Position numbers and translations under genes: made by a program. The notes below the pieces were generated by a model. The model had not been told where the DNA came from and did not search any database. It worked only from the letters and a program-made list of their open reading frames with translations. A stretch of 64,000 bases of DNA, taken from IMG/VR virus record IMGVR_UViG_3300020583_000015, positions 5,668-69,667 of that record; one strand, written 5' to 3'. The DNA comes from a virus. Of this stretch, positions 22,564 through 44,554 are shown piece after piece (the stretch's first letter is position 1; each line of letters opens with the position of its first letter).

Positions 22564-24063
22564 TTAGATAAGTTGGGTTGAGAAATGTCGCCCCATGACT
22601 TCTTCAAGTCGGGTGATGAGACGTTCGCCTTGAATTGCACCCATCGCACACCGGGGGCCGCTTGCAACTACAACTCCTTCGGGATTCAGGATCTGTGTAC
22701 AAGGACAACTCTCAGGTGTGTAGTGGAGCTGATGACACGGATAGCATGGCGCAAGCTCCACGTCAGGCGCAAGGCAATAGTCGTTTTTCCAGTTTGCGCA
22801 AAGATTCTGGTGGGTGCTGTGGCTTAGCAGCGGGATCTTTGGCGTGTCAAAACATCCCGCTGCGTTGATCACTACACTCTCCACCCCCACCACACACTGC
22901 ACAAACTTCGTCAGCGCTAGAGTATGTCGTAGCGTTTGGGCCCCCGCCCGGGGAATGAGCTGGGGGTGTTGGAACTCCATGCAATTAGCTCGGGCGTCTC
23001 CGACGGTAATGATTCGGGCTTTGGGGTTTCGGTCAAGGAACTCTGTGACAACTGGTTGGAAGATCCCATAAACTTTATGGTAGCTACTACCATTGAGCGC
23101 CCAGAGGATGTTGTAAGAGCCTCCAAACTGCTTGAGAAAGTCTTTCGCGGCTCGCTCTTCTGCAGGGCTGAAATACAACTCTCCGCGCGATCCAACAACG
23201 TCTGAGTACCCTCCGAGTCGGAGAGTGAAATCATAATAATTGTGGCTTCCGCATTGGGCGCGACGCCACTCGCTTGTGGTGTAGAACTCCCTACGGCCTT
23301 CGACTTTGAGAAGCGAGCCTTCGCAGCTTTCGCTGAGGTTGATGTATTTGTCATAGTGTGGTCTCCAAAAATCCCAGTACTCACTAAGATCGATGTTTGG
23401 GATTGCGTCCTTTTCCTGCAACAGGAGGTTATCTACAAACGGGTTGTACTCCACAACCGGAGCGCTGTAGTTGGTGATGTTGAGGGTGACGTGGTAGCCA
23501 TCCTCGTGAAGCCTTCGAAGGAGTGGTGTGAGGATAATCATATCCCCAAGCGCACCATATCGGCACACGCACGCGCGAGGGCGAACATCAGCTGAAGGTT
23601 TGACTTCTATGCCTTTGGGCCCGTTCTTCTTTTTGTAGACTTGAACAAAATATCCCTCCTCGTGTTCAAGCTCCAACACCTTACGCCAGCTGCCTTTTGT
23701 AGCGATTCGCTCTTGCATGGTGGTGGGTGTTAGGATCGAGTCAGTCTTTTGAAGACTAATCAGATAGCCTCCAACCTTCAGCTTACTGACCGCCTCCGCT
23801 AGGTAGCCTGAGGGGTTGTCCTGCAGAAACAGCCGGTCTCCTACAAACACATAGTCAAAATAATTCTGAGCAAACGCCGCTAGATCCGCTGCGCACACAC
23901 TGATTTTTGGGTGGGGGGTGCTGTCTGCGTAAGCAGCAAACACATTGAGGGCTGTTGCGTTAGTGGGGAAGATCTCCTGGTTAGCGGTCGCTACTAGACC
24001 CTTTCCCCTCAAATAACAAACTGACGCGAAACGTGCCCATTTAGAGACATTTCCGAGCGCCAT
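22564..24063 (-). CDS. GT9 (ADP-heptose heptosyltransferase-like) glycosyltransferase with an N-terminal methyltransferase-like domain
   Basis: RYGALGDMIILTPLLRRL, NPFVD, GSSYHKVY, VVGVES.V.NAA, PCYPC are GT9/RfaF motifs. N-terminal FDYVF..LKVGGYL resembles a class-I SAM-MTase fragment. Confidence 0.85.
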   Translation of the reverse strand: MALGNVSKWARFASVCYLRGKGLVATANQEIFPTNATALNVFAAYADSTPHPKISVCAADLAAFAQNYFDYVFVGDRLFLQDNPSGYLAEAVSKLKVGGYLISLQKTDSILTPTTMQERIATKGSWRKVLELEHEEGYFVQVYKKKNGPKGIEVKPSADVRPRACVCRYGALGDMIILTPLLRRLHEDGYHVTLNITNYSAPVVEYNPFVDNLLLQEKDAIPNIDLSEYWDFWRPHYDKYINLSESCEGSLLKVEGRREFYTTSEWRRAQCGSHNYYDFTLRLGGYSDVVGSRGELYFSPAEERAAKDFLKQFGGSYNILWALNGSSYHKVYGIFQPVVTEFLDRNPKARIITVGDARANCMEFQHPQLIPRAGAQTLRHTLALTKFVQCVVGVESVVINAAGCFDTPKIPLLSHSTHQNLCANWKNDYCLAPDVELAPCYPCHQLHYTPESCPCTQILNPEGVVVASGPRCAMGAIQGERLITRLEEVMGRHFSTQLI

Positions 24064-24069
24064 TGAATG

Positions 24070-24525
24070 TTAACCGTTCTCTTCGAATGCCTCGTCAGCT
24101 GCGGTTTCGTAGTCACGTTTGATGGTGACATTAAAGTGTCCGCCTTCTTTGACACGCCGAGATTTGCCTGCGTGAGGTTTCATACAGGCGTCCAGGTGGT
24201 TTGAGTGGAATGGGAGTTGCTTGTCACAGATCTCACAGCGGAAGTCCACCGCCTCAAGACCCGCCTCTGCGAGCTGATCCCAAAGCTTCACAGGCTTATC
24301 GCTTCGCCGAAGGCTCAGCATAATTCCGCCTCCACAAGCTGCAGCATGTCGCGCGATTGCTTCTGCGCTGAGCGTCAGCCTGGTGTGGCAGGACGGATCT
24401 ACTTTGTGGTAGGGAGGGTAGGCCTGGCAAAGAATCTCAGTCGGATAGAAATTCTTCAGTGCTTCCCATTTTGTTCGGCTCCGCTGGGGAGTCTGAGGTG
24501 TGTTGGTTTGAGTTGGTGCGGGCAT
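24070..24525 (-). CDS. Hypothetical Cys/His-rich (possible Zn-binding) protein
   Basis: C..C and H motifs (FRCEICD, HLDACMKPH). Confidence 0.6.
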   Translation of the reverse strand: MPAPTQTNTPQTPQRSRTKWEALKNFYPTEILCQAYPPYHKVDPSCHTRLTLSAEAIARHAAACGGGIMLSLRRSDKPVKLWDQLAEAGLEAVDFRCEICDKQLPFHSNHLDACMKPHAGKSRRVKEGGHFNVTIKRDYETAADEAFEENG

Positions 24526-24551
24526 AATCGTCTAGAAAGCGTTTGTTACAC

Positions 24552-24599
24552 CACAGGGGGAGCTAGGAGAGGAGGTCAGGTGGGACTAACTCCCCTGTG
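24552..24599 (-). terminator. Stem-loop downstream of the capsid operon (terminator or processing site)
   Basis: CACAGGGG(G)A ... TCCCCTGTG inverted repeat; no strong U tract. Confidence 0.4.
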
Positions 24600-24631
24600 G
24601 CAGATTGGCGCGACCCTAAGGCCGCAAACCT

Positions 24632-24805
24632 TTAACTACGACATCCTGTTGGCCAACAGCTTGGCGGCGCAGGAGGCCTTGGGGCAGGAGGAAGAGGTTG
24701 GGGTTCAGTCCAACATTCCGGAGGACAATACGGATCAGGCGGCCACATTGGACCATCCGCAAAAGCCCCCGCTGCAAGCAGCCCTACCCACAACAACCGA
24801 CGCAT
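24632..24805 (-). CDS. 57-aa secreted Pro/Cys-rich peptide (below the ORF-track cutoff)
   Basis: Hand translation MRRLLWVGLLAAGAFA|DGPMWPPDPYCPPECWTEPQPLPPAPRPPAPPSCWPTGCRS; TAATG coupling to the upstream gene. Confidence 0.7.
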   Translation of the reverse strand: MRRLLWVGLLAAGAFADGPMWPPDPYCPPECWTEPQPLPPAPRPPAPPSCWPTGCRS

Positions 24806-25230
24806 TAGGTTGGCTGCTCCTGCTCTTCGAAGTAGATGTTGTAAGAACCAAATACTCCGTTAGCGCTGGACGTGCCAGTGCCAACCACGTTGACTGTCGG
24901 ACCAGCGTTCGCGCTGAAAGTCGCGCTCGCAAGTGTCATTACACCTGTCAACACCTGCCCAGCAGTACAGCTGGCAAGCGCAACAGTAGCGAAGGTTGAA
25001 GTGCCATTCAGAAAGACAGCTGCAAGCGTTCCGTTAGTGGAGTTAGCCGCAACTGTACAAATCATCCTGACGTTGTTGATGACGGTCTTACGGAAGTACT
25101 GCGGAAGCTGACACACCGCGCTGGATGTGACAACCGCTCCGTTAGAGCCGTAAGTGCCAGTTCCAAGATTCGTGCCAAAGGCGATCGCCTGGCAAGGCCG
25201 GTCGTAAAACTTTTGATCAGAATAAGCCAT
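24805..25230 (-). CDS. Putative capsid decoration/cement protein
   Basis: Directly after the major capsid gene; beta-rich, Thr/Gly/Ala-rich; AAGGAG RBS. Confidence 0.6.
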   Translation of the reverse strand: MAYSDQKFYDRPCQAIAFGTNLGTGTYGSNGAVVTSSAVCQLPQYFRKTVINNVRMICTVAANSTNGTLAAVFLNGTSTFATVALASCTAGQVLTGVMTLASATFSANAGPTVNVVGTGTSSANGVFGSYNIYFEEQEQPT

Positions 25231-25241
25231 ATTTGTTCTCC

Positions 25242-26189
25242 TTAGGCACTCGTCACGTACACGATGTGTTGCTCAGAGTCGACTGTGAAATTCCATACAA
25301 TCTTGAACCCAAGCAACGCATACCATGCAATTCCAAGATCACGACCGTAGTCAAGGGAGACTTTGATTCGGATCTCCTCGGGCACGCTTACTGCCTCGTA
25401 CACATTGTCAGAACCAAAGAACACGCCCTGACCATAGCTGGAGGCATTACCGATGGTGTTGCTGAAGAAACCAGTCTCTTCAACAAACCTCGTGTGGTAG
25501 TAGGTCCCAAGCTCACCGTTGAAGATGTTGGGAGCAAACGTCACAGTGTATTTGCTGACGTCAACCCAACCCCCTGCAGCAGTGTCGCTGAACATTCCGC
25601 TTAAGAAGGTAACACTCCCTATGCAGGCGTAGGTGTTACCGATGCGCGGAACCAGCTTTTTCTTCATGAAGTCCACAATCTGACGGGTGTTGCTACCTGT
25701 CAGGTTGGACGTAGCAACCGCTGTCGCAGTGCCGTTGGTTGTGAAGATTGTGTTGCCAGACGCGCTCAGAACCGCCACAAACTCTGTGGCTGTGAAAGCC
25801 GTGCCAGCCGCTGACTCCAGCACTTTCACCTGGTCATCCTTCAGCTTACGTTCTGTGACAGGTTCAATCTCAAACTGTCCCAACGTCTGAAGTTTCCCAG
25901 TAAAAGGCACGCTGTTACCGTACTCTGTAATGGAGCCAGTCCCTTGGTTCGTTACAAAGTTGGTCTCAGGAATGGTGTTTGTTTCGACGAGGGTTCCACC
26001 CTGAGTCGCAACGTTACCAGCTTTATCAAACAGCCAAGTGTCGCCTCGGCCTTTACCAACAGCTTCTCGCACATCAAGAAACTGCCGGAAACGGAACTCT
26101 GGCTGAGCCACAAACCGGATCTTTTGGGAAAGATACGGCGCGGTCCAGTTTCCGCCCAGAGTACTGATACTATATACTTGTCCAGGCAT
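25242..26189 (-). CDS. Major capsid protein (N4 gp56-like, HK97 fold)
   Basis: F.FRQF, GKG.GDT..F, ITEYGN, IFNGELG.Y...RFVE, FFG...EA, DYGR..GIAWY pattern; follows the scaffold gene. Confidence 0.9.
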   Translation of the reverse strand: MPGQVYSISTLGGNWTAPYLSQKIRFVAQPEFRFRQFLDVREAVGKGRGDTWLFDKAGNVATQGGTLVETNTIPETNFVTNQGTGSITEYGNSVPFTGKLQTLGQFEIEPVTERKLKDDQVKVLESAAGTAFTATEFVAVLSASGNTIFTTNGTATAVATSNLTGSNTRQIVDFMKKKLVPRIGNTYACIGSVTFLSGMFSDTAAGGWVDVSKYTVTFAPNIFNGELGTYYHTRFVEETGFFSNTIGNASSYGQGVFFGSDNVYEAVSVPEEIRIKVSLDYGRDLGIAWYALLGFKIVWNFTVDSEQHIVYVTSA

Positions 26190-26213
26190 TGTTCGGTACC
26201 TTCGTTAGTGTCG

Positions 26214-27484: not shown

Positions 27485-30400
27485 TTAGTTTGTGTCGGAT
27501 TCAGCTACACTGTTAGCAAGCACATTACCGCTGGAGTCCTTGATGCGGTAGCTCCAGGGGGTGGTGCCGGTTGGGGTGTAGACGGTGATGGGGGCACAAG
27601 CCGGACTACAGGCGCTAGAGGCCATGAAGTTAGTGGCTGAGCCATATCGAAGCTCAAGCGTCGCAGCCGAAGGCGGGGTGTTAGCCCCGTTCCAGCCACT
27701 AATTGTTCGGGTTTTGAAGGTCCCACAGCTATTGGTGAAGGTGATGACATGTGGGTTTGGTTGAAGACCTCCCTCGTGATAGACTGTGTAGACGTTGGCG
27801 CTAGTCTTGATGATCGGTTGATCTGGACACCAAGTGCCAATAAGCCCACTCAGGTCGATTGTGCGGGTGGAGGGGGTCATGCCGCTGATAGTGGCAACGA
27901 TTGTGGAGCTGCTGACTTGAGCCAACTCCCCTGGACCACCACTAAGTTTAAGGCCGTTGAAGGTCTGAGTTGAGCTGTCAAACACATCCAGCACAACCAA
28001 CCCGCCACTTGTGGTGTAGGTGTAGAAGCTGCCGCCTGCCGCAGGCACACACTCAGTTGAGCTAACCGGACTGGTTGTTACGACCTGAACTCCACAAGCT
28101 GGGTTTGTGATGGTTCGGCTCGGAACGGAGCTCTTAAGATACGGCCCAAACACTGTAGTGAAGCTTCCGCTGTCGTTGACCTTCAGGATTGCCACGCGCT
28201 CTCGGAAACAAGGTATCACACTTCCGCTAGTGTAGGAACCGCTGAGTCCGCTAAAGTCTCCGTTGTTAGTTTTGAAAGTCACAACATTCCCGCTGACTGC
28301 GCTGACGCTAGGTCCAACATTCCCAACCCCGTTACAGCTTGCATTGGAGTTGACATTCCCGCTTCCAACAAACCCGCTTGTTGAGGCTTGATCCCCGACA
28401 ACGTAGTTGTGGGAGTTTGCAGCAAAGGTGATTTGGAGGTGGGTTGCGTCAGCAGCCACCGCGTTGGTGATGCCGCCTCCAGACTGGGTAAGGGTCTGCG
28501 CGGCTTTGTATTGGCTATCAGTAATAGAGTCTTCACACATATGACCCCACCCTGCCACCGCATATTGGGCTCCGCTTGTCCCACGAACAATCCAGATGTC
28601 ACTGTTGATGCCGTTACCCGCGAGGTTCGGCATGTTTTGGCCCTTCACGTTGAACGCCTGAATACCGCTTCCAAGACCTGTAGCAGTGCCCGCACTTGGA
28701 AACACGCTAGGAGGAGCTGCTGGACCTTCGCTTACGCACTGGGTTGTGTGGGTTGCGTCAGTCACAGGGGTTACGTTCCCGCTAGGTGTGGTGACGCTTG
28801 TACTGTCATACAGCAGGTTGAATTGGATTGTTTTGCTTGCGCCAGCGTTTGTTCCGGAAGGAAAAGTGTCATACACACCAAACAGCGGGAACGCTGGGTT
28901 TCCGTTTGTTAGGACCACACACCTTTTCCAAACGGTTGTGTCGGAGTTGGTGTAGGTTTGGCAACTGTAGGAGCTGTAAGTGAAGTTCAACACTTCTGTC
29001 TGGGCGGTTGCTCCAACAGCCGCGAAGTTTGTGGAAGAGCTGCCCCCGGCTGTCTGGACTGGGTCGTACATACTGGTTGGGGCTCCGTACCAAGGATACG
29101 AGGCGTTTTGGGTGTTGGAGGTGAATTCACTGCTGTAGATGAGGGCGCTGTGGCAAATCCGTCCTGGGCAATCAGGCTGATAGATATTGCTGCTGAGGTC
29201 CACAACCAGCGGAACATTGTGGAAGTAGCTAACAAACGAACCTCGGTCAGCCTGCGCATGGTCGCTATAGAACTCCCCATTCAAAACCATGTACCAATTC
29301 TCGTGGGTTGAGTTCTGATTAAAGCGTCCTGCTGTATAGTAGCCTGGGGCGTTGTAGGTTGAGAGGGTTGGCATCCCAGGGTTTGTGAGGGTTGTGTCGA
29401 TCGAGATGATTGGTGGCCCAAAGAAAGAATTGAAGTTCAGAAGCGTTGGGGTATTTTGATTGTACCAACTTCCCATGTCAGTATTAGTCCCGTAGAGACT
29501 TGCAAGGAACCCTGGTTGCTGAACAGCGGTGTAGGTGGCTTCGCCAATTGCAGGCAGCTTCCGGACATTCCCCCACCGTGGGTCAGGCGGAGCAATATAG
29601 TTTGAAAGGAAGTTGTAGTATAGCGGTAGCGTTGGGTAGCTACTGGAGTTGAATCCCGCAAGATTCTGATTCAGTGCAAGCAGATTCAGGAATGTTTGGT
29701 CGTTTGTGCCAAGGTAAGAAGCGCTTGAAGCGCCAGTCCCGGACCCGTTGATTGTTGCTTGCACAACCTGTTGGTTGGTAGTGAGGGCATTCGCGGTGTA
29801 TTTACCGATGTAGGGATGGGACGGAAAGAACGTCGCGGCCTTCGAAACCAGACTGTTGTAACCGTTGGTCTGATTAAAGGTTCCGCCTTGATCCCCGCAC
29901 ACACAAACCCCGTTTGGAAACAGCGGTGTGAAGTTCGGATCAACAATCAACGATCCAATCCAGCCCGCGTAGTTTTTGAAGGAGGTCTTTTGGGTACCTG
30001 AAATGAAGGATGTTTGGAGCGCGTAAGCTGCGTTGGCGATGTGTTGACCAGCGAAGTTTAGCAGCTCAGACCCAAAGCAATTCCCGTCGTAGATACCGTC
30101 GTACTCGGCAATTCCAACTCCACAATCCTGGACTTTTGGAATGAGGCTTGACAAAATCGCGTCAAGACATCCAGAAGCTTGACTTACAAAACAAGTCAGG
30201 ATGTTTGCGCTGTAGCTGTCTCCGGTTAGGCTGACTGTGCTGTCTACAATTGTTTTAAAGCCTGCAACATTGTTTTTGTAGTTGTTCGCGATTGTTGCAA
30301 GATGCGCGGTTGGGATATACGGGGACTGGAACCCTCCAGCCGGGTCTGGGAAGTTCAGCAGGTTCCAACTGTATTGTTCTGTAAGGCTAATGCCAGCAGT

Positions 30401-32794: not shown

Positions 32795-32795
32795 C

Positions 32796-35700: not shown

Positions 35701-35879
35701 GAAGCAACATTCACAACCAGGTCACTGATGCCCATGTTGCTAGTCAGGGTTGTTGCGGCTTGGTCAGACGCCTTTAGCAGCTGGCTGTCTGTAACAATCG
35801 CGCTTGGGAATTGCGCGGTTTGAGCCAGTAGCGCGGATGTTGCTACCGCAAAAACAAAAAGCTTTCTTATAAGGTTCAT
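32796..35879 (-). CDS. Tail fibre-like protein with N-terminal signal peptide
   Basis: MNLIRKLFVFAVATSALLA|Q; anchor domain paralogous to 19413-21503; fibre motifs GSYANPTWITSLA, FLRADGAWAVP, YTASNGITLSGTNF, GSGSEIQ. Confidence 0.8.
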   Translation of the reverse strand: MNLIRKLFVFAVATSALLAQTAQFPSAIVTDSQLLKASDQAATTLTSNMGISDLVVNVASTSSFVAFPTVVTIDNEHVQLCSNASGTQFVVCASGRGFGGTSASNHNNGASVRSNIIAWYVNTRSLEIEAIEQFLGVNGANIILPTGSYANPTWITSLAGTKVSLFTNTLQGTVPGSGGGTANFLRADGAWAVPSGSGSGVTTFSGDGTLINNINSSGTVTISLATVGAHKYWGNNSGSTAAPGYDAIQPGDLPTGIPNANLANPSLTYNGVTVNLGSTGSIGCAGGGVNAQTSSYPLVSGDNNKLVTENGASLTATLPAPAPAAPWCATILNLNASALTIARNTLTINGGTSNITLQQYQWAQVWSDGTNYLATAPLVAGSGITITPASNGLSLASNATSYTASNGITLSGTNFTVDSTYTAVLSGNQTILGKWSVAGGAVTGQAGLRLVCSTLFTVNLGVGDLACDQSDYTIAMRNNSSQWIKPYYGISGSAATSGDILLAGSNFATSSISTHTNGQYLAWVSGAAAFGNIQCTDVVNGVCTNAANTWTTGLQSFSAADFLAPVHSSDPGTCTAGQFEFNSTSTSFKGCTATNTWAAIGGGASPAGSGSEIQLRLNSTTFQALANSSSPAAGLLALSTTPPSNSTSCVFNFGTSSYTGGDSQDVLCGKWGSNATPFKFIGPNGNQVFRATWVNSGDTVFIMNAANNTNFAGLESNTNLVLQGDASGGATPSNARTSIQDSSGNTGLQFFSETPANTSNSMQSICIGADCKGGYNPSAISSAALTLMAKQTITATVADSMAGGLDLIPHLDAATAQTVTRLDYIRFRNPSLTGAGPAALTDAVAGWFDAAAGTHPAITTSGTCLAGPGLACIKYNINNTIGYTPVLSTTNKLVGSIASIDLTTQSAAISATALWTPAATQLYRVSYYAKVTTAGTSSILGGTTGLVLAYTDGTDSVAQTAFTLPEDNQAGTALSVGTGNTTNTTQATLTGSAVIYAKTGVGVTYAFGYSSTGTTMVYELHIKVEAL

Positions 35880-38242
35880 GATTGTCCTTGCGGCACAGCT
35901 TGCAAAGCCTGACCCTGTTGGTCGAGGTTTTGTTGGTTGTGTTGGCGATCGATAATGTCCATTGCGTTTTGGTGATGGTCCTGGGCAACTTGGTGGGTGT
36001 GTTGGGCAGCTGCGAGTTGTTGTTGTTGGTTCTGTTGAGCTGCGGCTTGGGCAGTATCATTTTGTTGCTTTTGGACGTTGTGAGCCATCTCCGCCAGCTG
36101 CGGGATCATCCGCAACATCTCTGGCGTGAGCGTCGCTGCTTCCTGCGCAGCTTTGTTAGCAGCAACCGTTGCGGGATCAGCGATAATTTTTTCAATATCG
36201 TGGAGGGCCGGACGGAAGCTCTCAAGGATGCGTCGTAGGAGTTCATCTTGGTTGAGGTACGGAAGCCATGCTTCAGGGTTCTGGCCGATGATGTTCATCA
36301 GCTGCACAAGGTTTTGGAGGATCTCAGCTTTTTGGATTTGCTGGGTGATGCCAGTCACTTTGATCTCATAGTTGCCGACAATCAGCTCAGTCAACTCTTC
36401 CTTTGACATGCCCGCAATCACACCCGCGTCTACCCCCAATATTGACGCAACGCGGGGATCATTGGCAGTATCAATAAACTGAAGTATAAGATCAGTAGCG
36501 AGATCAACAATAGGCAGCAGTGCTTCTTGTTCGATAGTTGTGGCCATCGCGCCAAAAAAGGAGTTTTGGTTTTCAGCTTTTTGGTTGATTTCTGTTGCGC
36601 TTTGGACACCCCGGAACCTTGGGATGCCTTGCTGGATTTCACTTACAAACGCTCCCTCTTGGTGCGCTCGATCCAACTCAGCACTAACTTGTACCGCCCC
36701 AGTCGAAATGTCTTGAAACTCAATGGGGTTAATCCCGGGCTGTCCCATGTAAGCGTTATTCCGACGGAACATTTTCCCGGGCGACATGCCTGTTTCAAAA
36801 TCTTCAGGATTCTCATAAGCGTTCATGTTTACTTCAAACAGCGGCATCAACCGGAACATCAGCGTGTCGACGCTCAGGTTAGCGATGCGCGAGAGGCCTT
36901 TATTGATCTCACGCACCATTTCAATAATGCCCACACCATCAACCCGAAAAGGGAGAATCAGCGGGCTAAAAGCCACATACGGAGGCTTTCGCGTCCACAT
37001 AGGGTTGGAGTTGTTGATGAGGATTACATTGTCGTTTGCGATGATGACGTGCCCAAAACGAGTCAGCTCCTGGTCTTCGATGATGATTGGGCCATAATAC
37101 TCAGTAATCTTCACCACACCTGTGTTAACATCAGGGCCATTGTAGGTTTGAGTACGCTCACTCCACCGTAGCATACTCTGGCGTGTCCACTCATCAAGCT
37201 GCATAGGTTTGATTTGGCGGACTTTCTCGACCCCATCATCCCCAAACACCCCATCCTCCGCCATGTGCATTAGTTCCCACTTAGGAACTTCAATCTCTTC
37301 AAGCGTGCCTGTCCACTGATTAAAGCGGCTTCCAGGCAGCCAGTAGAAGTTGTAAGGGTCTACAGGCCGAATAAACAGCTGGCCCTCAAGGACTTCCTCC
37401 GACACAATTTGTTTTTTCATGTACACTTGGGCTGGGATTGCTCCACCCGGTTGAGGTGGGCCACCCAATACCCCAAGTGCTTCGTTCGGCAATTGCGTAG
37501 GATACAACGACGCATCCTGTCGCTGGAGTTGGCGAGGAAGTTGACCAACCGGCAAAGGACTACCAATAGAGGGAGGGGCTTCACGAGGAATCCCCCCCGC
37601 AACATCAGCCTGGCTGATGCCCTGAGACACACTTCTAGGATCTGCAAAGTTAGGCGGCTGGATTGAACCAAGACCTCCCGCCATAGGCGGCTGGCCCGGC
37701 ATCTGATACGGAACATTCTCAACGCGAACCCGCTTCCGAGGGACGAGCCCCCACCATTCTTTCCACACCCCCACCCCAATCATGAAGCCACATTCAAGGC
37801 CCTCCCCAAACCACCGGGTGTACTTCGCGCGCTCAAGAAAGACTTTCGTTAAGGCTGTCATGCGCTCCGCGCGTTGGATCTCTACCAGGTCGTTGGGGTT
37901 GTAGGCCTCATGTTGCCAGGCGTTCTTTGTGGTTGTGAGGAGGCGTTGGATAACGTTTGTGGCTTGCTTAACGCTGCTGAAAGCCTTCGGAACAATGATC
38001 TTGCTTTGCCAATCTTCTTTCGAGCTCCAATCCTCCAGCCCCCGATACAGCTGCCAACATTCATTCCAGATGTTTTGTTTATCAAGCCTGGCGTTCCGCA
38101 ACATATAACGCCAGTTCTGGATGTACTTTATGATTTGGCCATCGTAAGGTTTTCGTCCATCAGGCAACCGAGGCTCTGCAGCATCCTTCGGGTCCGGTGG
38201 GACCATTTCAATCGGAATACTGTCTCGGTAACTTTCAGGCAT
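35876..38242 (-). CDS. Portal protein (P22/podovirus type)
   Basis: W.ECWQLYRG..W.SK, VDPYNFY, ITEYYG, P.RVDGVGI.E, SATEI motifs; Gln-rich C-terminal barrel. Confidence 0.92.
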   Translation of the reverse strand: MPESYRDSIPIEMVPPDPKDAAEPRLPDGRKPYDGQIIKYIQNWRYMLRNARLDKQNIWNECWQLYRGLEDWSSKEDWQSKIIVPKAFSSVKQATNVIQRLLTTTKNAWQHEAYNPNDLVEIQRAERMTALTKVFLERAKYTRWFGEGLECGFMIGVGVWKEWWGLVPRKRVRVENVPYQMPGQPPMAGGLGSIQPPNFADPRSVSQGISQADVAGGIPREAPPSIGSPLPVGQLPRQLQRQDASLYPTQLPNEALGVLGGPPQPGGAIPAQVYMKKQIVSEEVLEGQLFIRPVDPYNFYWLPGSRFNQWTGTLEEIEVPKWELMHMAEDGVFGDDGVEKVRQIKPMQLDEWTRQSMLRWSERTQTYNGPDVNTGVVKITEYYGPIIIEDQELTRFGHVIIANDNVILINNSNPMWTRKPPYVAFSPLILPFRVDGVGIIEMVREINKGLSRIANLSVDTLMFRLMPLFEVNMNAYENPEDFETGMSPGKMFRRNNAYMGQPGINPIEFQDISTGAVQVSAELDRAHQEGAFVSEIQQGIPRFRGVQSATEINQKAENQNSFFGAMATTIEQEALLPIVDLATDLILQFIDTANDPRVASILGVDAGVIAGMSKEELTELIVGNYEIKVTGITQQIQKAEILQNLVQLMNIIGQNPEAWLPYLNQDELLRRILESFRPALHDIEKIIADPATVAANKAAQEAATLTPEMLRMIPQLAEMAHNVQKQQNDTAQAAAQQNQQQQLAAAQHTHQVAQDHHQNAMDIIDRQHNQQNLDQQGQALQAVPQGQS

Positions 38243-38258
38243 TAGGTGTCCTTAGACG

Positions 38259-39134
38259 TTAGTTCATCCAGCGTTCGTACATTTTTGGCAACAACAGTTT
38301 TGTGTTGGTAGGCATGGGATTACTGTTCATAAAGTACTTACAATCATCCAGCGCGTGGTTGTTTTTACTAACAATCTCCTCACTATATTTGTTAACTGTC
38401 GCCTGCTGACGCTCACTGATTGAACCAAACACTGCCCCCTCAAACTCTCGAATCATATTCGGACAGCAATCATAAATCCTAAAAGTAGGATCACCAGGAT
38501 TCCGCCAGTGATCCCGCATGATACCCAGCCAAGCTGTTTCGTCAATGTTCCCGGGAATGAGTTTGTAGATGCCCTCTGCCTCAAACAAGCTTCCAACCGT
38601 GACGACACCCAGTTTGGTTTGTTGGGTCTTATTGCGCAGCATTGTAGGATCAGCAGCAATGTAACGAAGCCGGTCGTAATAAGGACAACTTCGTAGGGTT
38701 GCGCAGAACTCCACAATGTTCTTACAAGGCTCATACAGTTCCCACACAGCATACGTCACTCCATCAAGGATAGTGTAAACATGGAAACTAGAAGGATTCC
38801 GAGCACCATAATCGAGCCCGCCCCAGCAAACGGCGCTGTCAGGCACATCAGGCAAAGGGCTGCCCACGACAATTTCATTCCTGTGGGTTGCGATTTCCGG
38901 AAAAACTTTCTCACCAAAAAGCGCGGTGTATTCAATTTCATATTCTTTGGCCCACTCAGCCCCGCTCAAGCCTGACTTTGCTTCCTCTCGCCACTCAGGA
39001 CTGCGCTTCGCAGGGTCGGCAAAGTAGAAGAGCGTCACGACCACGAAACCGTTTTTTCGGTTTCGTCGAATCCGCAGCCCTTCAGACTCGTGAAGGATCT
39101 CAGGCGTCAGACTTAAGGTTGTTGGGGATGCCAT
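38259..39134 (-). CDS. Terminase large subunit, C-terminal RNase H-like nuclease half
   Basis: ADP.KR..EW, WAKEYEIEY, GLDYGARNPS, IAADP, CPNMIREF, NHALDDCKY; immediately upstream of portal; no Walker motifs. Confidence 0.88.
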   Translation of the reverse strand: MASPTTLSLTPEILHESEGLRIRRNRKNGFVVVTLFYFADPAKRSPEWREEAKSGLSGAEWAKEYEIEYTALFGEKVFPEIATHRNEIVVGSPLPDVPDSAVCWGGLDYGARNPSSFHVYTILDGVTYAVWELYEPCKNIVEFCATLRSCPYYDRLRYIAADPTMLRNKTQQTKLGVVTVGSLFEAEGIYKLIPGNIDETAWLGIMRDHWRNPGDPTFRIYDCCPNMIREFEGAVFGSISERQQATVNKYSEEIVSKNNHALDDCKYFMNSNPMPTNTKLLLPKMYERWMN

Positions 39135-39658
39135 ACAAACAGTTTGTCAGCTCTTACAAGTGTTAGTTGAGGTTGCGTTAGCAACCATTCGTCAGTCGCT
39201 TTCGTAGCTCCTTCCACATTCCCATAGTCATCCAACACAACTTTCGCCCCATCAACGGCAAATCTCGGCAGCGCTCCCAACACCTGTCGATACGATTCGT
39301 ATAAGTCGCAATCAACATAGACCAATGCCACAGGATCAGAAAAATACGAAAGCGTCTCGACAAATCTTCCCCTCACTGGAACAATATTCGGGAAGCCTTC
39401 AAATAGGTCTTCAACTCTTTTGTGCGGGATGAATTTACCGGGTGGGTTCTGGAAGTCCAGCGCTTCCTGATAGTCCAGTGGCGGTATGCCTTCGTATGTG
39501 TCGAATGCCCAAACAACCCGGTTTGGACAAAGCGCTGCGAGCTGGCGTGTACTACCACCGTTGTATACACCAAACTCAGCAACATTCCCATCGGGCAGAC
39601 CTTCGTTAACGAGACGCTCAAAGAGCTGTTGGTGGTCGTTAACAGGCCCGAGACTCAT
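39113..39658 (-). CDS. TylF/MycF-family O-methyltransferase
   Basis: AEFGVYNGGS, FDTYEG, GRFVETL, VDCDLYES, LDDY motifs. Confidence 0.9.
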   Translation of the reverse strand: MSLGPVNDHQQLFERLVNEGLPDGNVAEFGVYNGGSTRQLAALCPNRVVWAFDTYEGIPPLDYQEALDFQNPPGKFIPHKRVEDLFEGFPNIVPVRGRFVETLSYFSDPVALVYVDCDLYESYRQVLGALPRFAVDGAKVVLDDYGNVEGATKATDEWLLTQPQLTLVRADKLFVWHPQQP

Positions 39659-39660
39659 AC

Positions 39661-39900
39661 CTAGGCAGCCGCCGGAGGAGGGCTGAGCACCGCGATTTCA
39701 GCAGCAACAGCTGTCTGCAGCGCTTGAAAAGCTGCCAACGCAGACGCTTGCGAGGCGGTCTGAGCGGATTGATCTGCAGCGATTGTCGCCTGAAGCGAAG
39801 CAAGCTTTCCTTGGTCGGAAGCAGTTTGGGTTTGGGCGTTTGTCAGGCTTGTCAGAGCATTCTCTGCAGCCGTTGCGAGATCCGAGATGTTTTGGGCCAT
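39661..39900 (-). CDS. Ala/Gln-rich coiled-coil hypothetical protein
   Basis: Likely start MAQNISDL at 39900 after an AAAGGA RBS. Confidence 0.5.
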   Translation of the reverse strand: MAQNISDLATAAENALTSLTNAQTQTASDQGKLASLQATIAADQSAQTASQASALAAFQALQTAVAAEIAVLSPPPAAA

Positions 39901-40027
39901 GGTTAGGTTTTGTCCTTTTTGGGTGTTACAACACCCTTTCCGATGAACTGCTGTCGAGTCACATCTGTTCCCCGAGGAACCACAAACGTGGTGGTAGTGC
40001 GGACAACTTTTGTAGGTTTCTTCATAA

Positions 40028-40462
40028 CTACTTTGCTCCGGCTCCTTCAATCAATTCAAGACAAATGTTATCTGCAGCATCGTATTGGCCGTTTCGCGCA
40101 TTACGTTGCCAAACACCAGCCAACACCCCAGCAGGAATGCTAACTCCATTTGGCCATACTAAACTAAAATACGGCGGTAGTGTGCCTGTAGAGGGTTGAT
40201 CAGGCCCACCCACACCAGGATAAGCGCTTGTTATAATTCGTCCAAGCGGATCATACTTCGCCTGAATATGCTGAACTGTCTCAAGTGTTGGGAAGTTTGT
40301 AATATCAATCGCCTGCTGCATCTCGCCTGTGGCGGTTGGCTCAACCACAAATTGCTGAGGCGCAAACGTCGGAGTCCAAGGGGCGTTCTTCTGGGGCGGC
40401 ATCGCGGGCTCAAACAACGCCCACATCCAATCAGGCATTCCGCCAGGGTTCGGGAGGCTCAT
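40028..40462 (-). CDS. Pro-rich hypothetical protein
   Basis: AAGGA RBS; in the operon between the terminase halves. Confidence 0.6.
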   Translation of the reverse strand: MSLPNPGGMPDWMWALFEPAMPPQKNAPWTPTFAPQQFVVEPTATGEMQQAIDITNFPTLETVQHIQAKYDPLGRIITSAYPGVGGPDQPSTGTLPPYFSLVWPNGVSIPAGVLAGVWQRNARNGQYDAADNICLELIEGAGAK

Positions 40463-40467
40463 TTTCG

Positions 40468-40713
40468 TTAGGTTCCTTTCGGCGGCGTAGACGCCGTTTG
40501 AAGTGGATCAATATGCAGCTTGTCATTTAACTTCTTGATGATCGCGTTGAATGGGGCTGTGAGTTCCAGAAAGTTAGCAATGACCGCTTGCTTTTCAGCG
40601 TCAGTCGCTGCTGTGTTAAGGGTGTTGATGACTTGAGCAATCGACGCAATTGCGTTGCTGACTGCTGTGATGGTTGTGGAGACTGGATCTCCGATGGTTA
40701 TTCCAAGTGCCAT
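40468..40713 (-). CDS. Small amphipathic hypothetical protein (holin-like candidate)
   Basis: Likely start MALGITIGDP; lies next to the two cell-wall hydrolase candidates. Confidence 0.4.
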   Translation of the reverse strand: MALGITIGDPVSTTITAVSNAIASIAQVINTLNTAATDAEKQAVIANFLELTAPFNAIIKKLNDKLHIDPLQTASTPPKGT

Positions 40714-40717
40714 AGTG

Positions 40718-41335
40718 TTAAGTAGTGACGTTGACAGAACCCCAATGATCGAGACTTGATAGGGGCCTACCGCAAATTTGAATTGGCGGCTGGTAGATAT
40801 TGAATCTGGAAGCATCCTCAGGAGAGGTTTCGGCAGCATCCACGCCCAAACTAACCACCCCAGCCGCTTTGTTGAGGAGTGTTGCCAATTCAGAACAATA
40901 CTCATCGTTGGTTTGTTCATGATTCATGAAATCTTCGCCCACAATCGGCAACTTGACAAGTGGTTCGAAGATCATCCGGAGCATCTGGCGATAGTCGTAG
41001 GGTTTGCCAAGGAGGGTCTCGGCGAGTGCGTGCCAAGCGTCCCAATTCCCACGGGCTCGAACCTCAGGCTTCAATAATGCCACCACACACAAACCCCCTC
41101 CAACAACATGGTCCTGAACTCTCCCTACAAGATCTGATAGTTGTACTCCTGTAAAGGTCCCTGTTTCTGTGGACTCAATCAGCTGCATAGTGCTGTAGAC
41201 TGAGGCCATGTGGCTAAAGTTACTGCGTGTAACGGTTCTGATTGCCCAACTAAGGAAGCCACCAGAGGTAAAAAACATCGCATCCCCGATCTGGAGATGT
41301 GGCAAAACATCAGCAAGGGTTGCCTGAGTGATCAT
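40718..41335 (-). CDS. Permuted papain-like amidase (YaeF/YiiX, NlpC/P60 superfamily)
   Basis: LQIGD, SWAIRTVTRSNFSH, GKPYD, YCSEL, SPED motifs. Confidence 0.85.
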   Translation of the reverse strand: MITQATLADVLPHLQIGDAMFFTSGGFLSWAIRTVTRSNFSHMASVYSTMQLIESTETGTFTGVQLSDLVGRVQDHVVGGGLCVVALLKPEVRARGNWDAWHALAETLLGKPYDYRQMLRMIFEPLVKLPIVGEDFMNHEQTNDEYCSELATLLNKAAGVVSLGVDAAETSPEDASRFNIYQPPIQICGRPLSSLDHWGSVNVTT

Positions 41336-41355
41336 TCGATACCCACTATTGTAGC

Positions 41356-41856
41356 TTAGATGGTGACGTTTGCGCTGATATAGTTGGCAAGATGGAGCCA
41401 GTCAGGGCAAGGCAGGCCCGGCTTTGGGGCTTTTTTCCAAGGCTCCCGAACCCCTGCTACTTCACTAACCAAATCAATAAGAGGAGTATAGGGGTCAATA
41501 CCAAGGTTACCAGCAACATTGTTACAATACCGAAGCGGATCATTGTCTGCGTCTCCCACTGGACAATAGATGTTGATTGTTTCGTAGAGGTTCAGGCCTC
41601 GTTTGATCTTTGCATCCAGATCATTCTCTAGTGCCGCCCAACCAATAAGCCAAGAAGGAAACCGACAATAAGGGCCGTCCTTAATGCCCTGCACGAACCT
41701 CGTGGGAGCCCACTCCAAATCTCCCGGATTGTTATCTCGCTGAGGTCTATTGAGGCCATGAATTGTGCTGTTAAACCACCCTTCCTGTTCCGCAAACGCC
41801 AGTGCAAGCCCTACCCGACTAATTTTCTGTGGTGTGTTGTTTGACAATTCGATCAA
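41356..41856 (-). CDS. Lysozyme-fold protein (endolysin or virion muramidase candidate)
   Basis: QEG, RDNNPGDL, F.S...G..AL, YCP..DNDP..Y motif set. Confidence 0.7.
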   Translation of the reverse strand: MIELSNNTPQKISRVGLALAFAEQEGWFNSTIHGLNRPQRDNNPGDLEWAPTRFVQGIKDGPYCRFPSWLIGWAALENDLDAKIKRGLNLYETINIYCPVGDADNDPLRYCNNVAGNLGIDPYTPLIDLVSEVAGVREPWKKAPKPGLPCPDWLHLANYISANVTI

Positions 41857-42334
41857 TTACCTCCGAGGTGTGAAGACCACTCCGCACAAACATCTTGGGG
41901 ATTGACGGAAAGCGTGTTGGTTTGTCCCGGTATTCAATCCCTTGGACCCTGAGGTCAGGCTTCAACGCAGCAATCAACCGTCGAAACTCACTGTCAGTGT
42001 CTACCTCCACTAAATAGTCAATCGGCGTATAGCCTAGTGCTGTCGCGCGCTCTACAAATGTCATTATCGGACGGGAGGGGCCTTTGGTGCGCTTAAGTTT
42101 TGCGTCACTATCAAGCGCACACACAAGGCTAGTGGCGTGATCCCTAGCAGCACTAATGAGACGTAGGTGAGAGACTGTAAGAAGATCAAATCCACCGTTG
42201 ATAAGCACAACAGGCCGAGGAAGCTCAAGTTTCGCCAAACCAGGAATCCGTAACCACGGCATCTCATCGCTCTCACCAGAGCGGTTCCGGGCAAGAAAAT
42301 AATGTTCAATTCTTTTTGCAGCCTGTCGTCCCAT
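41819..42334 (-). CDS. RfaE/HldE domain II-like sugar-1-phosphate nucleotidyltransferase (HldC-like)
   Basis: NGGFDLLTVSH, ALDSD..LKRTKGPSRPI...ER, PD..VQG.EY, HTSEVIDR. Confidence 0.88.
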   Translation of the reverse strand: MGRQAAKRIEHYFLARNRSGESDEMPWLRIPGLAKLELPRPVVLINGGFDLLTVSHLRLISAARDHATSLVCALDSDAKLKRTKGPSRPIMTFVERATALGYTPIDYLVEVDTDSEFRRLIAALKPDLRVQGIEYRDKPTRFPSIPKMFVRSGLHTSEVIDRIVKQHTTEN

Positions 42335-42357
42335 AGCGTTAGCGTTCGTTGTGTGCG

Positions 42358-43218
42358 TTAGTTTTGGGCTTCGTCTGTAAGATCCGCTGTCGCGAGGTAG
42401 AACCAGCTTGGGTTCGCGGAGCTGACTGCCGTAAACCTACCCCCAGCCTGAATAGCAGGTTTAATAGCTCTGAAAGCAGCACCCGCCTCCATTTGGAAAG
42501 CTGCTTCGTCCTGGAACACTCCCGACGGATGGTACTGTCTAATTTGGTCTGGACCTTGCGGGAAACCAAGAATTTCGGAATTAAGAGATGGAAGGAGTAG
42601 CTGTCCTGCTCGTCCCACTCCAGCTCCGAAGACGGCCTTATGGACATCTCGAAGAAACTTCGGTTGATTTTTGTAAATGAAATTTGCACGTTTCACCAAC
42701 TCTTGGGTTTTCATGCCATCTTCAGATTGAAAAATGTTTTGGCGACCTTCATGAAAAAGCGTGTCCCAGGTGTACATCGCAACAGTCAGCCAGGTTGCCA
42801 TCATATCGCGACTCTTCTCGATGAAGACGAATTGCTCGCTGAGCCAAGTGTCAATAATAGGTGGCATGTAAGGCATAACTGTGAAGCTCCTAACGGTGGA
42901 GAGTTCTGTGAAGTAGGCTGCAATCTCCTGGAATCCCTTCACATGAACCCCATGACGGGCTTCAAGATGGTCACTGCGTTTGTTGAAGTGGTATGTTGCG
43001 TTGTCTTTGCACAACAAACACACATGCAGTGGGTGAGGATCTTGGGTGTAGACGTAGGTCATCCACGGGTGGCGGCTGGTGTCAAGCCAATAGAGCATGT
43101 CTCGGCTACACTTTTGCCACTCTTGCTCACCAATCCGCTTCAACAGTGACGCTCGTTGTTTGCCTGGAAGCGTGCCGATCTTCGCGAGCAGCTCTTTTGT
43201 GAGGAGAATTTCACTCAT
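42358..43218 (-). CDS. Terminase large subunit, N-terminal ATPase half (with C2H2-like insert)
   Basis: EKSRDMMATW (Walker A region), VFQDEAAF (Walker B) and VSSAN coupling motif; ends about 15 aa later. Confidence 0.88.
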   Translation of the reverse strand: MSEILLTKELLAKIGTLPGKQRASLLKRIGEQEWQKCSRDMLYWLDTSRHPWMTYVYTQDPHPLHVCLLCKDNATYHFNKRSDHLEARHGVHVKGFQEIAAYFTELSTVRSFTVMPYMPPIIDTWLSEQFVFIEKSRDMMATWLTVAMYTWDTLFHEGRQNIFQSEDGMKTQELVKRANFIYKNQPKFLRDVHKAVFGAGVGRAGQLLLPSLNSEILGFPQGPDQIRQYHPSGVFQDEAAFQMEAGAAFRAIKPAIQAGGRFTAVSSANPSWFYLATADLTDEAQN

Positions 43219-43420
43219 CTTCGTTAGGGGAAGTTGGAGGCCAGGCAGGGGGCGGGGGTTCAGGGGTTATAAACCAATCTGCTAGGAGCGCTCGAATCGA
43301 TTGTCCAATTGCTTCAAGACCCTCCCCAACCATCTGAAGTGGCAGCCCCACCAACGCAAGCGGCAGCACCAACAGAAACACCGCTACATTGTAGGTGAAG
43401 TTCGGAAACGGCCTTGTCAT
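43211..43420 (-). CDS. Small membrane protein
   Basis: Hydrophobic helix plus a Pro-rich tail; overlaps both neighbours. Confidence 0.5.
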   Translation of the reverse strand: MTRPFPNFTYNVAVFLLVLPLALVGLPLQMVGEGLEAIGQSIRALLADWFITPEPPPPAWPPTSPNEDE

Positions 43421-43794
43421 AGTTTTTTACTGTCCTCAATCCTCACTACATCAAGATCATCGTGGGGTGTTGAAGTCTCAACAATTGTTGCCCACTCTTC
43501 AAACGGATTACTAAAACGGTGTGCCCACCCAGGCAGAATCTCCACACTATGAGGCAGGTCCTCATGAAGTGCGTATTCATTTGGAGGAAAAGTCGTGATG
43601 TCATTTGAGGCCCACAATTCAAGAATCACCGCGCCTTTGATAACGCTAAAGGTCTCCCGCTTCAACGGGTGGTAGTGGATGCTACAGGCATAGCCTGGCC
43701 GAATCCGCAGGAGCTTCCCACAATACTGCTCATTGTTCGCAAGCCACTCTTCAAATCCCCATAGTTTTGTCACAATTTTGTTTTCTAAAGGCAT
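43417..43794 (-). CDS. Cupin-fold sugar isomerase-like protein (mannose-6-P isomerase / D-lyxose isomerase type)
   Basis: KLWGFEEW, SIHYHPLKRETF, PGWAHRF, ETST..D.VR; AAGGAG RBS at MPLENK. Confidence 0.85.
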   Translation of the reverse strand: MPLENKIVTKLWGFEEWLANNEQYCGKLLRIRPGYACSIHYHPLKRETFSVIKGAVILELWASNDITTFPPNEYALHEDLPHSVEILPGWAHRFSNPFEEWATIVETSTPHDDLDVVRIEDSKKL

Positions 43795-44554
43795 CTTGGA
43801 TCTCCTTGTCTGAAACAGTTGAGGTGTAGGGTTTTTGGACTGCGACTGCTGCAGCAACATTCGCGTACCACAGTGCGTGTTGGACGGTGTAACCCCTTTC
43901 GATTGTTGCATATGCGAACGCTGCAATCACCGTGTCGCCAGCTCCATTCACACTTCGCACAAACTCCGCCCGAGCTGGAAGCTTGCTGAACTCAAGCGCC
44001 CCTTTCCCAAAGTAACAAAGGCCCTCGGCTCCTTGCTTTAGCACCACATTCTTTTGAGCCTGATACGCCCCAAGGTGTTGATTATATTCAGTTTGGTTGG
44101 GAAAGTAGGTGGCGGAAGCCCAAAAATCCCAGGGACTGCGTTTGGTATCAATAAAACTGATTCCAGCAGGGATGTCCGCCATCACCGATATCGCAGCTCG
44201 GTCAATTGAGCCTTTGTTGTAGTCAGCCACCACCAGCGCATCCGCCTGCTCCAACGCTACATTAAGCTCAATTAAATCAACAGGTTCACACCAGTCATGC
44301 TCATCCCATCGGGCGACTTGGGTGTCTCCGACCATCAACCTGTTTTTTGTGGGCTGCCCTTGCCCAAACACCTCAATCACTGTCGCGCCCAGTGCGCGAA
44401 GGTTCGCCGCGACGTTTGCAGCCCCTCCAGGGCACACCAGGCCTGAACTGACCTTCACTACCGGGATTGGGGCCTCAGCGCTAAGGCGGTCAGCGCTACC
44501 ACACCAATAGCGATCCTGGAGCGCATCCCCCACCACCACAAAAGTTTTACTCAT
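43751..44554 (-). CDS. RfaE/HldE domain I-like PfkB sugar kinase (HldA-like heptose-7-phosphate kinase)
   Basis: VVGD..DRY..G...RLSAEAPIPVV, GGAANVAANL, DYNKG, PN..E, GAGDTV; AAGGAG RBS. Confidence 0.92.
   Translation of the reverse strand: MSKTFVVVGDALQDRYWCGSADRLSAEAPIPVVKVSSGLVCPGGAANVAANLRALGATVIEVFGQGQPTKNRLMVGDTQVARWDEHDWCEPVDLIELNVALEQADALVVADYNKGSIDRAAISVMADIPAGISFIDTKRSPWDFWASATYFPNQTEYNQHLGAYQAQKNVVLKQGAEGLCYFGKGALEFSKLPARAEFVRSVNGAGDTVIAAFAYATIERGYTVQHALWYANVAAAVAVQKPYTSTVSDKEIQDAFRKQNCDKTMGI

Follow-up and report, generated by a model that had tools for sequence, protein, structure and literature searches.

A conserved, putative heptose activation and transfer kit among the late structural genes of an uncultured phage lineage

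Introduction

Why would a phage keep genes for the activation and transfer of a sugar among those that build its particle, which sugar would these genes produce, and to which molecule would it be attached? These questions are raised by a stretch of 64,000 nucleotides (hereafter the window) of the IMG/VR virus record IMGVR_UViG_3300020583_000015, corresponding to bases 5668-69667 of a 69,667-bp viral contig with a CheckV completeness of 100%. In this window, genes for an HldA-like kinase, a small metal-binding cupin, an HldC-like nucleotidyltransferase (hereafter the transferase) and a TylF-family O-methyltransferase are interleaved with the two halves of the terminase gene, and a further gene, placed among the head genes, encodes a protein of 499 amino acids (aa) in which a methyltransferase-like (MTase) domain is fused to a putative heptosyltransferase of the GT9 family.

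ADP-heptose is a building block of lipopolysaccharide (LPS) and also a signal recognised by innate immunity, and GmhA, which acts at the first step of its synthesis, has been studied as a drug target. The analysis described here indicates that the kit is maintained across a large, uncultured phage lineage, and its conserved order and co-occurrence support the view that these genes compose one functional kit for the production of an activated heptose and for its transfer.

Results

A preliminary description of the window, made from the sequence alone, had proposed that five genes forming a heptose activation and transfer kit were found in the same direction as the terminase, capsid and adaptor genes. 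All five open reading frames (ORFs) were located, all of them on the minus strand (Table 1), which also carries the terminase in two pieces, the portal, the capsid and the SU10-type adaptors. They belong to a minus-strand gene run, from ~49.6 kb down to 6.5 kb, in which the sugar kit is accompanied by small late genes, by those for terminase, portal, capsid and adaptors and by those for the large tail proteins, and plus-strand genes for replication and nucleotide metabolism are found at both ends of the window. Promoter and terminator scans gave no signal above the shuffled expectation separating the kit from the structural genes. Moreover, the G+C content (0.48-0.54) is even throughout the window, and a recent island is thus not indicated.

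Table 1. Genes of the putative heptose kit and adjoining features (positions refer to the window)
Feature	Position	Strand	Basis
Methyltransferase-GT9 fusion, 499 aa, putative heptosyltransferase with a C-terminal four-Cys finger	22564..24063	-	AlphaFold fold match
Cys/His-rich protein, 151 aa	24070..24525	-	directly upstream of the GT9 gene
Ser/Thr-rich protein, 141 aa, candidate decoration protein and acceptor	24805..25230	-	directly after the capsid gene; role from position only
Terminase large subunit, nuclease half, 291 aa, separate polypeptide	38259..39134	-	phrog_5653
TylF-family O-methyltransferase, 181 aa	39113..39658	-	PF05711, PF13578
Window-specific cargo: 166-aa lysozyme-like protein, 205-aa permuted papain-like protein, three small ORFs	39661..41856	-	between the terminase halves
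HldC-like nucleotidyltransferase, 171 aa, putative heptose-1-phosphate adenylyltransferase	41819..42334	-	TIGR02199, CTP_transf_like
Terminase large subunit, ATPase half, 286 aa, separate polypeptide	42358..43218	-	phrog_5989, phrog_2
Metal-binding cupin, 125 aa, putative sedoheptulose-7-phosphate isomerase (GmhA analogue)	43417..43794	-	cupin fold, PF14667
HldA-like kinase	43751..44554	-	TIGR02198, PfkB, HldA 4e84

Gene order was compared in 12 related viral contigs and two further genomes, and the succession kinase, cupin, ATPase half, transferase, methyltransferase, nuclease half and portal was conserved. Kinase and cupin were found directly upstream of the ATPase half in all nine viral contigs whose locus extends to that point, and the transferase occupied the terminase gap in 10 of the 11 contigs spanning it. 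The MTase-GT9 gene was present in the three complete relatives first tested (3/3). Seven GT9-bearing records have a completeness of 90% or more; of these, the kinase was found in six, and the cupin and the transferase in five each; the record devoid of kinase, cupin and transferase corresponds to a 43.5-kb phage with a stand-alone GT9. The co-occurrence of the kit in related phages, which the preliminary description had expected, was thus observed, with the order kept and the kinase in 6/7 of the complete GT9-bearing records. The proposal of one functional kit was supported, and the role assigned to the cupin had to be revised, as discussed below.

The assignment of the two activating enzymes as RfaE-I-like and RfaE-II-like was also sustained. 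The kinase gave its best match with TIGR02198 (rfaE_dom_I, E 1e-44), in addition to PfkB (4e-17), although its 153 bits, obtained in two stretches, fell under the 345-bit equivalog cut-off of that model, relative to which the protein is ~45 residues shorter. Its best solved relative was HldA 4e84 (E 9e-23), with which it has in common the N-terminal VGDxxxDRYWxGxxxRxSxEAPxPVV stretch, and residues G204-A205-G206-D207, N153 and E156 were invariant in seven orthologues. We take the GAGD anion hole/base, the NxxE motif and this HldA-type N-terminal substrate stretch to be the family-defining motifs. For the nucleotidyltransferase, TIGR02199 (rfaE_dom_II) was the best-scoring family (E 2.6e-19; 69.5 bits, under the 181.5-bit cut-off), CTP_transf_like was matched with an E of 9e-7, and the only PDB match at E <= 0.001 was 5x9q (E 6e-9), deposited as 'putative cytidylyltransferase' and presumably the HldC of B. 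pseudomallei. Its signature is T-V-S-H in the window and H-A-G-H in 4/7 orthologues, the last His and T156 being invariant, and these positions may correspond to the (H/T)xGH signature and the C-terminal ISxT-like motif of nucleotidyltransferases. In agreement with what had been noted previously, a six-frame search of the complete genome revealed neither GmhA nor GmhB, and no HldD-like SDR epimerase was encoded in the whole genome.

The putative heptosyltransferase was recognised by its fold. Sequence matches of the 499-aa protein were weak (Methyltransf_11, E 0.0016; heptosyltransferase III, E 0.0064), PF01075 did not match the window protein and matched only 4 of 36 family members (best E 3.7e-6), and the family profile reached the GT9 structure 3tov with an E of 0.008; this evidence for GT9 was considered too weak, and therefore the fold was relied on. 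In the AlphaFold model (pLDDT 91.8), residues 158-495 were superimposable on GT9 structures, namely 3tov (Z 24.3), WaaF 1psw (Z 23.1), TibC 4rap (Z 20.4) and WaaC 6dfe (Z 20.4), with a Foldseek E of 9e-13 for GT9, whereas other GT-B families gave Z scores of ~13. Residues 1-148 adopted a compact class I methyltransferase fold (Z ~14), so that the MTase-like/GT9 fusion anticipated by the preliminary description was borne out by the fold match of both domains.

This protein has at least 461 homologues, many of them named 'ADP-heptose:LPS heptosyltransferase' by JGI, and in the 36 that were aligned C440, C443, C453 and C472, located just before the last helix, were invariant (36/36). The related ESM Atlas clusters were dominated by viruses, stand-alone GT9 and MTase-fused forms alike, and a tblastn search of cultured phage records retrieved no member of the family. 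In every relative examined the gene occupied the same place, in the order capsid gene, Ser/Thr-rich protein (~140-170 aa), Cys/His-rich protein (~150-165 aa), MTase-GT9 and adaptor, and a distant phage with 42% capsid identity, binned with a Thioglobus metagenome-assembled genome (MAG), carried the GT9-only form there. The Ser/Thr-rich protein of the window contains 22% Ser+Thr, and its family is kept in relatives with an invariant N-G-T motif. Homologues of the Cys/His-rich protein were found in the same place in five relatives (E 1e-41 to 4e-19) with no family match, and for this protein a role in zinc binding, as a partner, or in the head, as one of its components, is possible.

The cupin deserves a separate description. 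It passed PF14667 (29.3 bits against a cut-off of 28.7), in line with its earlier recognition as a cupin, and remained below the cut-offs of PF01050 (17.4 against 23.6 bits) and PF07385 (18.6 against 20.8 bits), while the orthologues from contigs L002 and L003 were above the PF01050 cut-off, with 30.7 and 33.4 bits. Matches were also obtained with the C-terminal region of TIGR01479 (E 7e-5) and with NF047837 (E 6e-5). The best PDB sequence match was the D-lyxose isomerase 2y0o (E 8e-5), and L-ribose isomerases were also among the sequence relatives. Residues H40, H42, E47 and H92, which compose a His/His/Glu/His two-motif metal site, were invariant in 63 sequences. The AlphaFold model (pLDDT 96.3) displayed a jelly-roll fold whose top structural match was the cupin domain of CapF (Z 16.8, rmsd 1.8 over 117 residues), followed by the T. 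kodakarensis phosphomannose isomerase (PMI) 7zvy (Z 15.1) and D-lyxose isomerase (Z 14.0, 30% identity). The protein is not a member of the GmhA family, since its fold is a jelly-roll and not the SIS fold, and no TIGR00441 match was present in the genome.

An exhaustive profile search found 9100 relatives of the cupin, compared with two proteins only by a word-based search. Among the 150 of these that were listed, there were three kinase-cupin fusions, one cupin-kinase fusion and two further, shorter kinase-cupin fusions, as well as one transferase-cupin and one methyltransferase-cupin protein; the fused kinases scored 301-328 bits on TIGR02198 and the fused transferase 112 bits on the HldC model. 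In addition, all eight kinase-bearing genomes (8/8) harboured either the cupin or a GmhA-like protein, and never both. The window genome and five relatives (G001, G002, G003, G007 and G009) presented the cupin with no SIS/GmhA match, and the other two (G006 and G008), without the cupin, each presented a 190-aa GmhA-like protein above the PF13580 cut-off (TIGR00441 E 3e-24 and 3e-37). By chance, this pattern would arise in 1/28 arrangements, although the genomes are related, and the two GmhA-like proteins are only 31% identical to each other. A 227-aa ORF beside the GmhA gene of G006 was considered as a candidate transferase and rejected (hhalign probability 0.2, no PDB match).

The presence of kit genes between separately encoded terminase halves had not been perceived previously, nor had the variable methyltransferase slot and the counterpart in cyanomyophages that are described below. 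The orthologue profile of the ATPase half, which has an N-terminal Cys/His motif, matched the ATPase of T4 gp17 (E 4e-9), and that of the nuclease half matched residues 258-416 of the TerL 5oe8 (E 1e-5) and also the SPP1 nuclease 2wbn. The halves lie 3.2 kb apart in the window, and in all relatives each is delimited by a start and a stop codon of its own, with 1-3.5 kb of variable cargo between the two. The TylF assignment of the methyltransferase inserted there was confirmed by PF05711 (E 4e-17, 62.6 bits against a 23-bit cut-off), of which positions 78-242 of 264 are covered, and by PF13578 (E 9e-8). A Pfam scan of gap ORFs identified a methyltransferase in 8/9 of the relatives' loci, of the FkbM type (Methyltransf_21) in L002, L003, L013 and L101 and of the Methyltransf_11 type in L004, L008, L009 and L014, and none in the gap ORFs of L102. 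Including the TylF type of the window, three families therefore share this slot, which suggests that the methylation pattern is the variable feature across relatives; TylF and FkbM relatives are sugar or natural-product O-methyltransferases. In the window-specific cargo, the segment 41356-41856 matched phrog_2276/873 and the segment 40718-41335 gave YiiX/YaeF-type matches, and no homologues of this cargo occurred in the relatives' loci. Endonuclease VII-type genes were found in L003 and L009 between the terminase halves or just after the nuclease half, which hints that the cargo site is a hot spot for mobile insertions.

Cultured phages gave no DNA-level match to positions 38000-45000 by blastn, and no tblastn match for the nuclease half. 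The portal has distant relatives only (22-24% identity) in HMO-2011-like pelagiphages, cyanobacterial podoviruses and the Sinorhizobium phage phiM6, the last of which has an intact terminase and is devoid of the kit. At the protein level, genes ~30% identical to the kinase were found in 36 records, mostly T4-like cyanophages. In P-SSM2 (PSSM2_309-313), S-CAM3 and S-SSM7, an HldC-like transferase and an HldA-like kinase (~30% identity) are adjacent, accompanied by a homologous cupin. In P-SSM2, transferase and kinase have as neighbours a 114-aa protein, a cupin of 118 aa and an SDR epimerase. The 118-aa cupin is annotated as 'cysteine dioxygenase' and is 34% identical to that of the window (E 2e-19). 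The 114-aa protein (PSSM2_311; 6710-7054 of L103) is annotated as 'phosphoheptose isomerase'; it gave no SIS match, presents a DxDGT motif and matched the small capsule-biosynthesis protein 9iqw (E 1e-10), so that it looks like a small HAD phosphatase for a GmhB-like step. Both public annotations thus seem to be wrong, the 'cysteine dioxygenase' being a presumable sugar-pathway cupin. Like the window genome, this cluster has no recognisable GmhA, but it differs from the window phage in having the small HAD-like phosphatase, the SDR epimerase and a carbamoyltransferase, and in belonging to a myovirus with an intact terminase. The transferase-kinase-cupin trio is therefore already present in cultured cyanomyophages, piecemeal and partly mis-annotated.

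Other features were also recorded. Two phage-like contigs of the lineage were binned in microbial MAGs, L018 in one labelled Thaumarchaeota and L019 in one labelled Candidatus Thioglobus autotrophicus; the assignment of L018, a contig of 63.6 kb, to an archaeal MAG probably arose as an artefact of binning, and that of L019 may point to a gammaproteobacterial host. On the minus strand (27485-35879), very large proteins rich in Ser/Thr, of 1791 and 1027 aa (23-24% Ser+Thr), are encoded by two genes located after the portal gene and next to the scaffold-like genes, that is, in the interval separating them; this place is empty in relatives or taken by much smaller genes. The two proteins gave no family or PDB match, and no tandem repeats recalling those of autotransporter passengers were found in them. 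On the plus strand, a phiEco32-type COOH-NH2 ligase, two Amidoligase_2 proteins and an ATP-grasp gene lie within 53662-62606, the last matching a PHROG labelled 'ribosomal protein S6 glutaminyl transferase'. Homologues of this cluster were found in the relatives G006 and G008, and its composition suggests the production of a peptide-like metabolite or modification. Also on the plus strand, a family A DNA polymerase with an N-terminal uracil-DNA-glycosylase (UDG)-like domain and a nearby dATP/dGTP diphosphohydrolase-like gene were identified at 330-3026 and 5133-5588, whereas neither PurZ nor a hydroxymethylase was seen.

Discussion

The kit resembles the split bacterial ADP-heptose pathway (GmhA, HldA, GmhB, HldC and HldD, with WaaC/WaaF as transferring enzymes) in its HldA-like kinase, HldC-like transferase and GT9-fold enzyme. 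It differs from that pathway in having no GmhA, GmhB or HldD and in the cupin placed at the GmhA step, and from WaaC/WaaF in the fusion of its GT9 to a methyltransferase, in the Cys4 finger and in the location of its genes in a phage late operon. In the route proposed here, the cupin would convert sedoheptulose-7-phosphate into heptose-7-phosphate, which the HldA-like kinase, judging from its homology, would phosphorylate to the beta-1,7-bisphosphate. The 7-phosphate would be removed by the host GmhB or by an unrecognised phage phosphatase, and the HldC-like transferase would act as a heptose-1-phosphate adenylyltransferase; because no HldD-like epimerase is encoded, the phage's own enzymes would take the route no further than the D,D form. 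Transfer of the heptose would fall to the GT9 domain of the 499-aa protein, as its fold suggests, with ADP-heptose as the donor that the co-conserved HldA/HldC-like genes point to, and the sugar may be O-methylated by the methyltransferase domain of this protein and also by the separate TylF-type enzyme. The acceptor would be a concurrently synthesised virion protein, for instance the Ser/Thr-rich 141-aa protein encoded after the capsid gene. A phage-encoded heptose glycosylation system of this kind, expressed with the late structural genes and with a virion protein as the most likely acceptor, has in our judgement about an even chance of being correct.

Some observations weigh against parts of this route. 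The contig L002 (L002/L007, a 19-kb fragment) carries the cupin and no transferase in the gap. Kinase and transferase are both below the NCBIfam equivalog cut-offs, and mannose-6-phosphate or some other sugar phosphate could therefore be what they act on. Regarding the phosphatase step, the P-SSM2 mini-HAD had no homologue in the window genome or in the relatives' loci (phmmer, six-frame ORFs). A small HAD-type ORF at 6053-6541 on the plus strand, with a D-I-D-G-V motif and a weak NT5C match, could encode a nucleotidase or the missing heptose bisphosphate phosphatase. As the phosphatase of the kit it was rejected, which also counts against a complete phage-encoded route, since it has no PDB relative, is unlike the P-SSM2 protein and occurs in only 2/5 complete relatives.

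The preliminary description had suggested that the cupin may change the identity of the sugar. The exclusion between cupin and GmhA-like protein and the fusions with HldA/HldC-like enzymes indicate instead that it is more likely the missing first enzyme, and that it probably replaces GmhA in converting sedoheptulose-7-phosphate. D-lyxose isomerase, L-ribose isomerase and type II PMI yield products with the manno-type configuration at C2, as GmhA does. Type II PMI/GMP-PMI and the small cupin PMIs (7zvy) are comparable enzymes, in which a metal-binding cupin converts a ketose phosphate into a manno sugar phosphate and is linked to a nucleotidyltransferase. The difference from GMP-PMI is that the partners in the window are HldA/HldC-like, and therefore a seven-carbon sugar phosphate is the expected substrate of the predicted enzyme. 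This assignment is weakened by the top structural match with CapF and by the passing of PF14667 and not of PF01050. It is further weakened by the genomes G006 and G008, which are without both cupin and transferase, so that the two were gained or lost together in the eight whole genomes; because of this and of the relatedness of the genomes, the exclusion may rest on one or two evolutionary events in a small sample. The cupin would otherwise be a CapF-like epimerase of a sugar nucleotide or keto-sugar, with the host GmhA performing the first step and a product other than D-glycero-D-manno-heptose, either a heptose or a hexose. The CapF, PF14667 and NF047837 matches fit such a role, as do the SDR epimerase gene adjoining the homologous P-SSM2 cupin and the existence of a transferase-cupin fusion. 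However, an epimerase of this type needs a keto-sugar, and the window genome encodes no SDR oxidoreductase or dehydratase; the 8/8 exclusion, the kinase-cupin fusions in both orders and the D-lyxose and L-ribose isomerases among the PDB sequence relatives likewise disfavour this role, which is regarded as improbable without being negligible.

Regarding the acceptor, a virion protein is the candidate that we favour, at a probability slightly short of even. The GT9 gene is fixed in the head block between capsid and adaptor, even in the relative with 42% capsid identity, it is co-directional with the structural genes and belongs to a virus-dominated family, and a conserved Ser/Thr-rich candidate decoration protein adjoins the capsid gene. 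The four invariant Cys also recall the iron finger of TibC, a protein O-heptosyltransferase, and the absence of HldD is consistent with the donor of that enzyme: the published TibC study (PMC4358343) gives ADP-D,D-heptose as its donor and describes a four-Cys iron finger (Cys339/342/358/370 of 406). The phage protein shares with the bacterial autotransporter heptosyltransferases (BAHT) TibC/AAH (4rap/4rb4) the GT9-like GT-B fold (Z 20.4), has four Cys at a similar distance from its C-terminus (440/443/453/472 of 499), near the C-terminal helix, and differs from TibC in sequence (8-9% identity), in structure (rmsd 8.6) and in its N-terminal domain, which has a methyltransferase fold and not a beta-barrel. 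As counterweight, the Z score for TibC is no higher than that for WaaC (20.4 each), and the fingers were compared by position and spacing, not by alignment. Moreover, GT9 enzymes classically act on LPS, and the same ADP-heptose enzymes could therefore supply a GT9 that remodels the LPS core or another envelope glycan of the host, the virion being unglycosylated. Such remodelling could block superinfection or stop the progeny from sticking to debris. Sullivan et al. 2005 (PMC1079782) put forward a cell-surface alteration for the sugar genes of P-SSM2. Among the top structural matches, all GT9, WaaF (Z 23.1) and WaaC (Z 20.4) act on LPS, the JGI names of many homologues point to the same substrate, and the relatives without cupin and transferase must use the host heptose pathway. 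Nevertheless, the position of the GT9 gene in the head-gene block, kept even in the distant relative, and the dominance of viruses in its family argue against an envelope glycan, and we know of no fused methyltransferase or invariant Cys4 finger in WaaC or WaaF. Remodelling of the host envelope is thus considered unlikely, although it retains appreciable weight.

A third target would be the phage DNA itself, with the sugar placed on bases around packaging, which would explain the interleaving of the kit with the terminase halves. Kinase, cupin, transferase and methyltransferase flank or separate the terminase genes in all relatives, the genome encodes the polymerase with the UDG-like domain, the dATP/dGTP diphosphohydrolase-like gene and the amidoligases, and the DNA glucosyltransferases of T4 also have the GT-B fold. 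On the other hand, neither a hydroxymethylase nor a thymidylate-synthase-like gene, which could provide an attachment point, was identified when the ORFs were scanned with Pfam and PHROG, and the GT9 gene is placed 14 kb away, in the head-gene block. To our knowledge, GT9 enzymes do not act on DNA, and the modification of DNA by the kit is judged very remote.

Virion glycosylation by phage enzymes would not be without parallel. In the mycobacteriophages studied by Freeman et al. in 2023, glycosyltransferases placed with the structural genes reportedly modify capsid and tail proteins; these are said to belong to other glycosyltransferase families and to use host nucleotide sugars, and we know of no heptose activation kit or GT9 in that system. 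Hence, sugar auxiliary genes and phage-encoded glycosylation are known kinds of phage functions, and what stands out in this lineage is the cupin-type replacement of GmhA, the virus-specific MTase-GT9 of the head block and the variable methyltransferase slot in a split terminase. In the open-access literature, no title on a phage-encoded heptosyltransferase was found among the matches listed, 'cupin' did not appear among the matches listed for sedoheptulose 7-phosphate, heptose or GmhA, and the phrase 'split terminase' was absent from the matches listed.

Conclusions

When all these elements are joined, the picture would be that of an uncultured lineage that O-heptosylates its own capsid-surface proteins with an O-methylated D,D-heptose, by means of a virus-specific MTase-GT9 that shares the metal finger of BAHT enzymes and of a new cupin-type sedoheptulose-7-phosphate isomerase, with methyltransferase swaps diversifying the virion glycan. 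In its entirety this picture is put forward tentatively, as possible and on balance doubtful. If it is true, it would represent the first heptose-glycosylated virus particle together with a new class of enzyme for a step well studied as an antibiotic target, to which a cupin performing the GmhA reaction would be a second, unrelated solution. The terminase split into separately encoded ATPase and nuclease halves offers a natural experiment on the assembly of the packaging motor. Selection for a diverse glycan is suggested by the interchange of three methyltransferase families, and the MTase-GT9 homologues, at least 461 in number, almost all viral and none from a cultured phage, point to a common and unstudied phage route to a glycan. 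If this glycan is on the virion, it would bear on the stability of these phages, on their adsorption and on their recognition by hosts or grazers.

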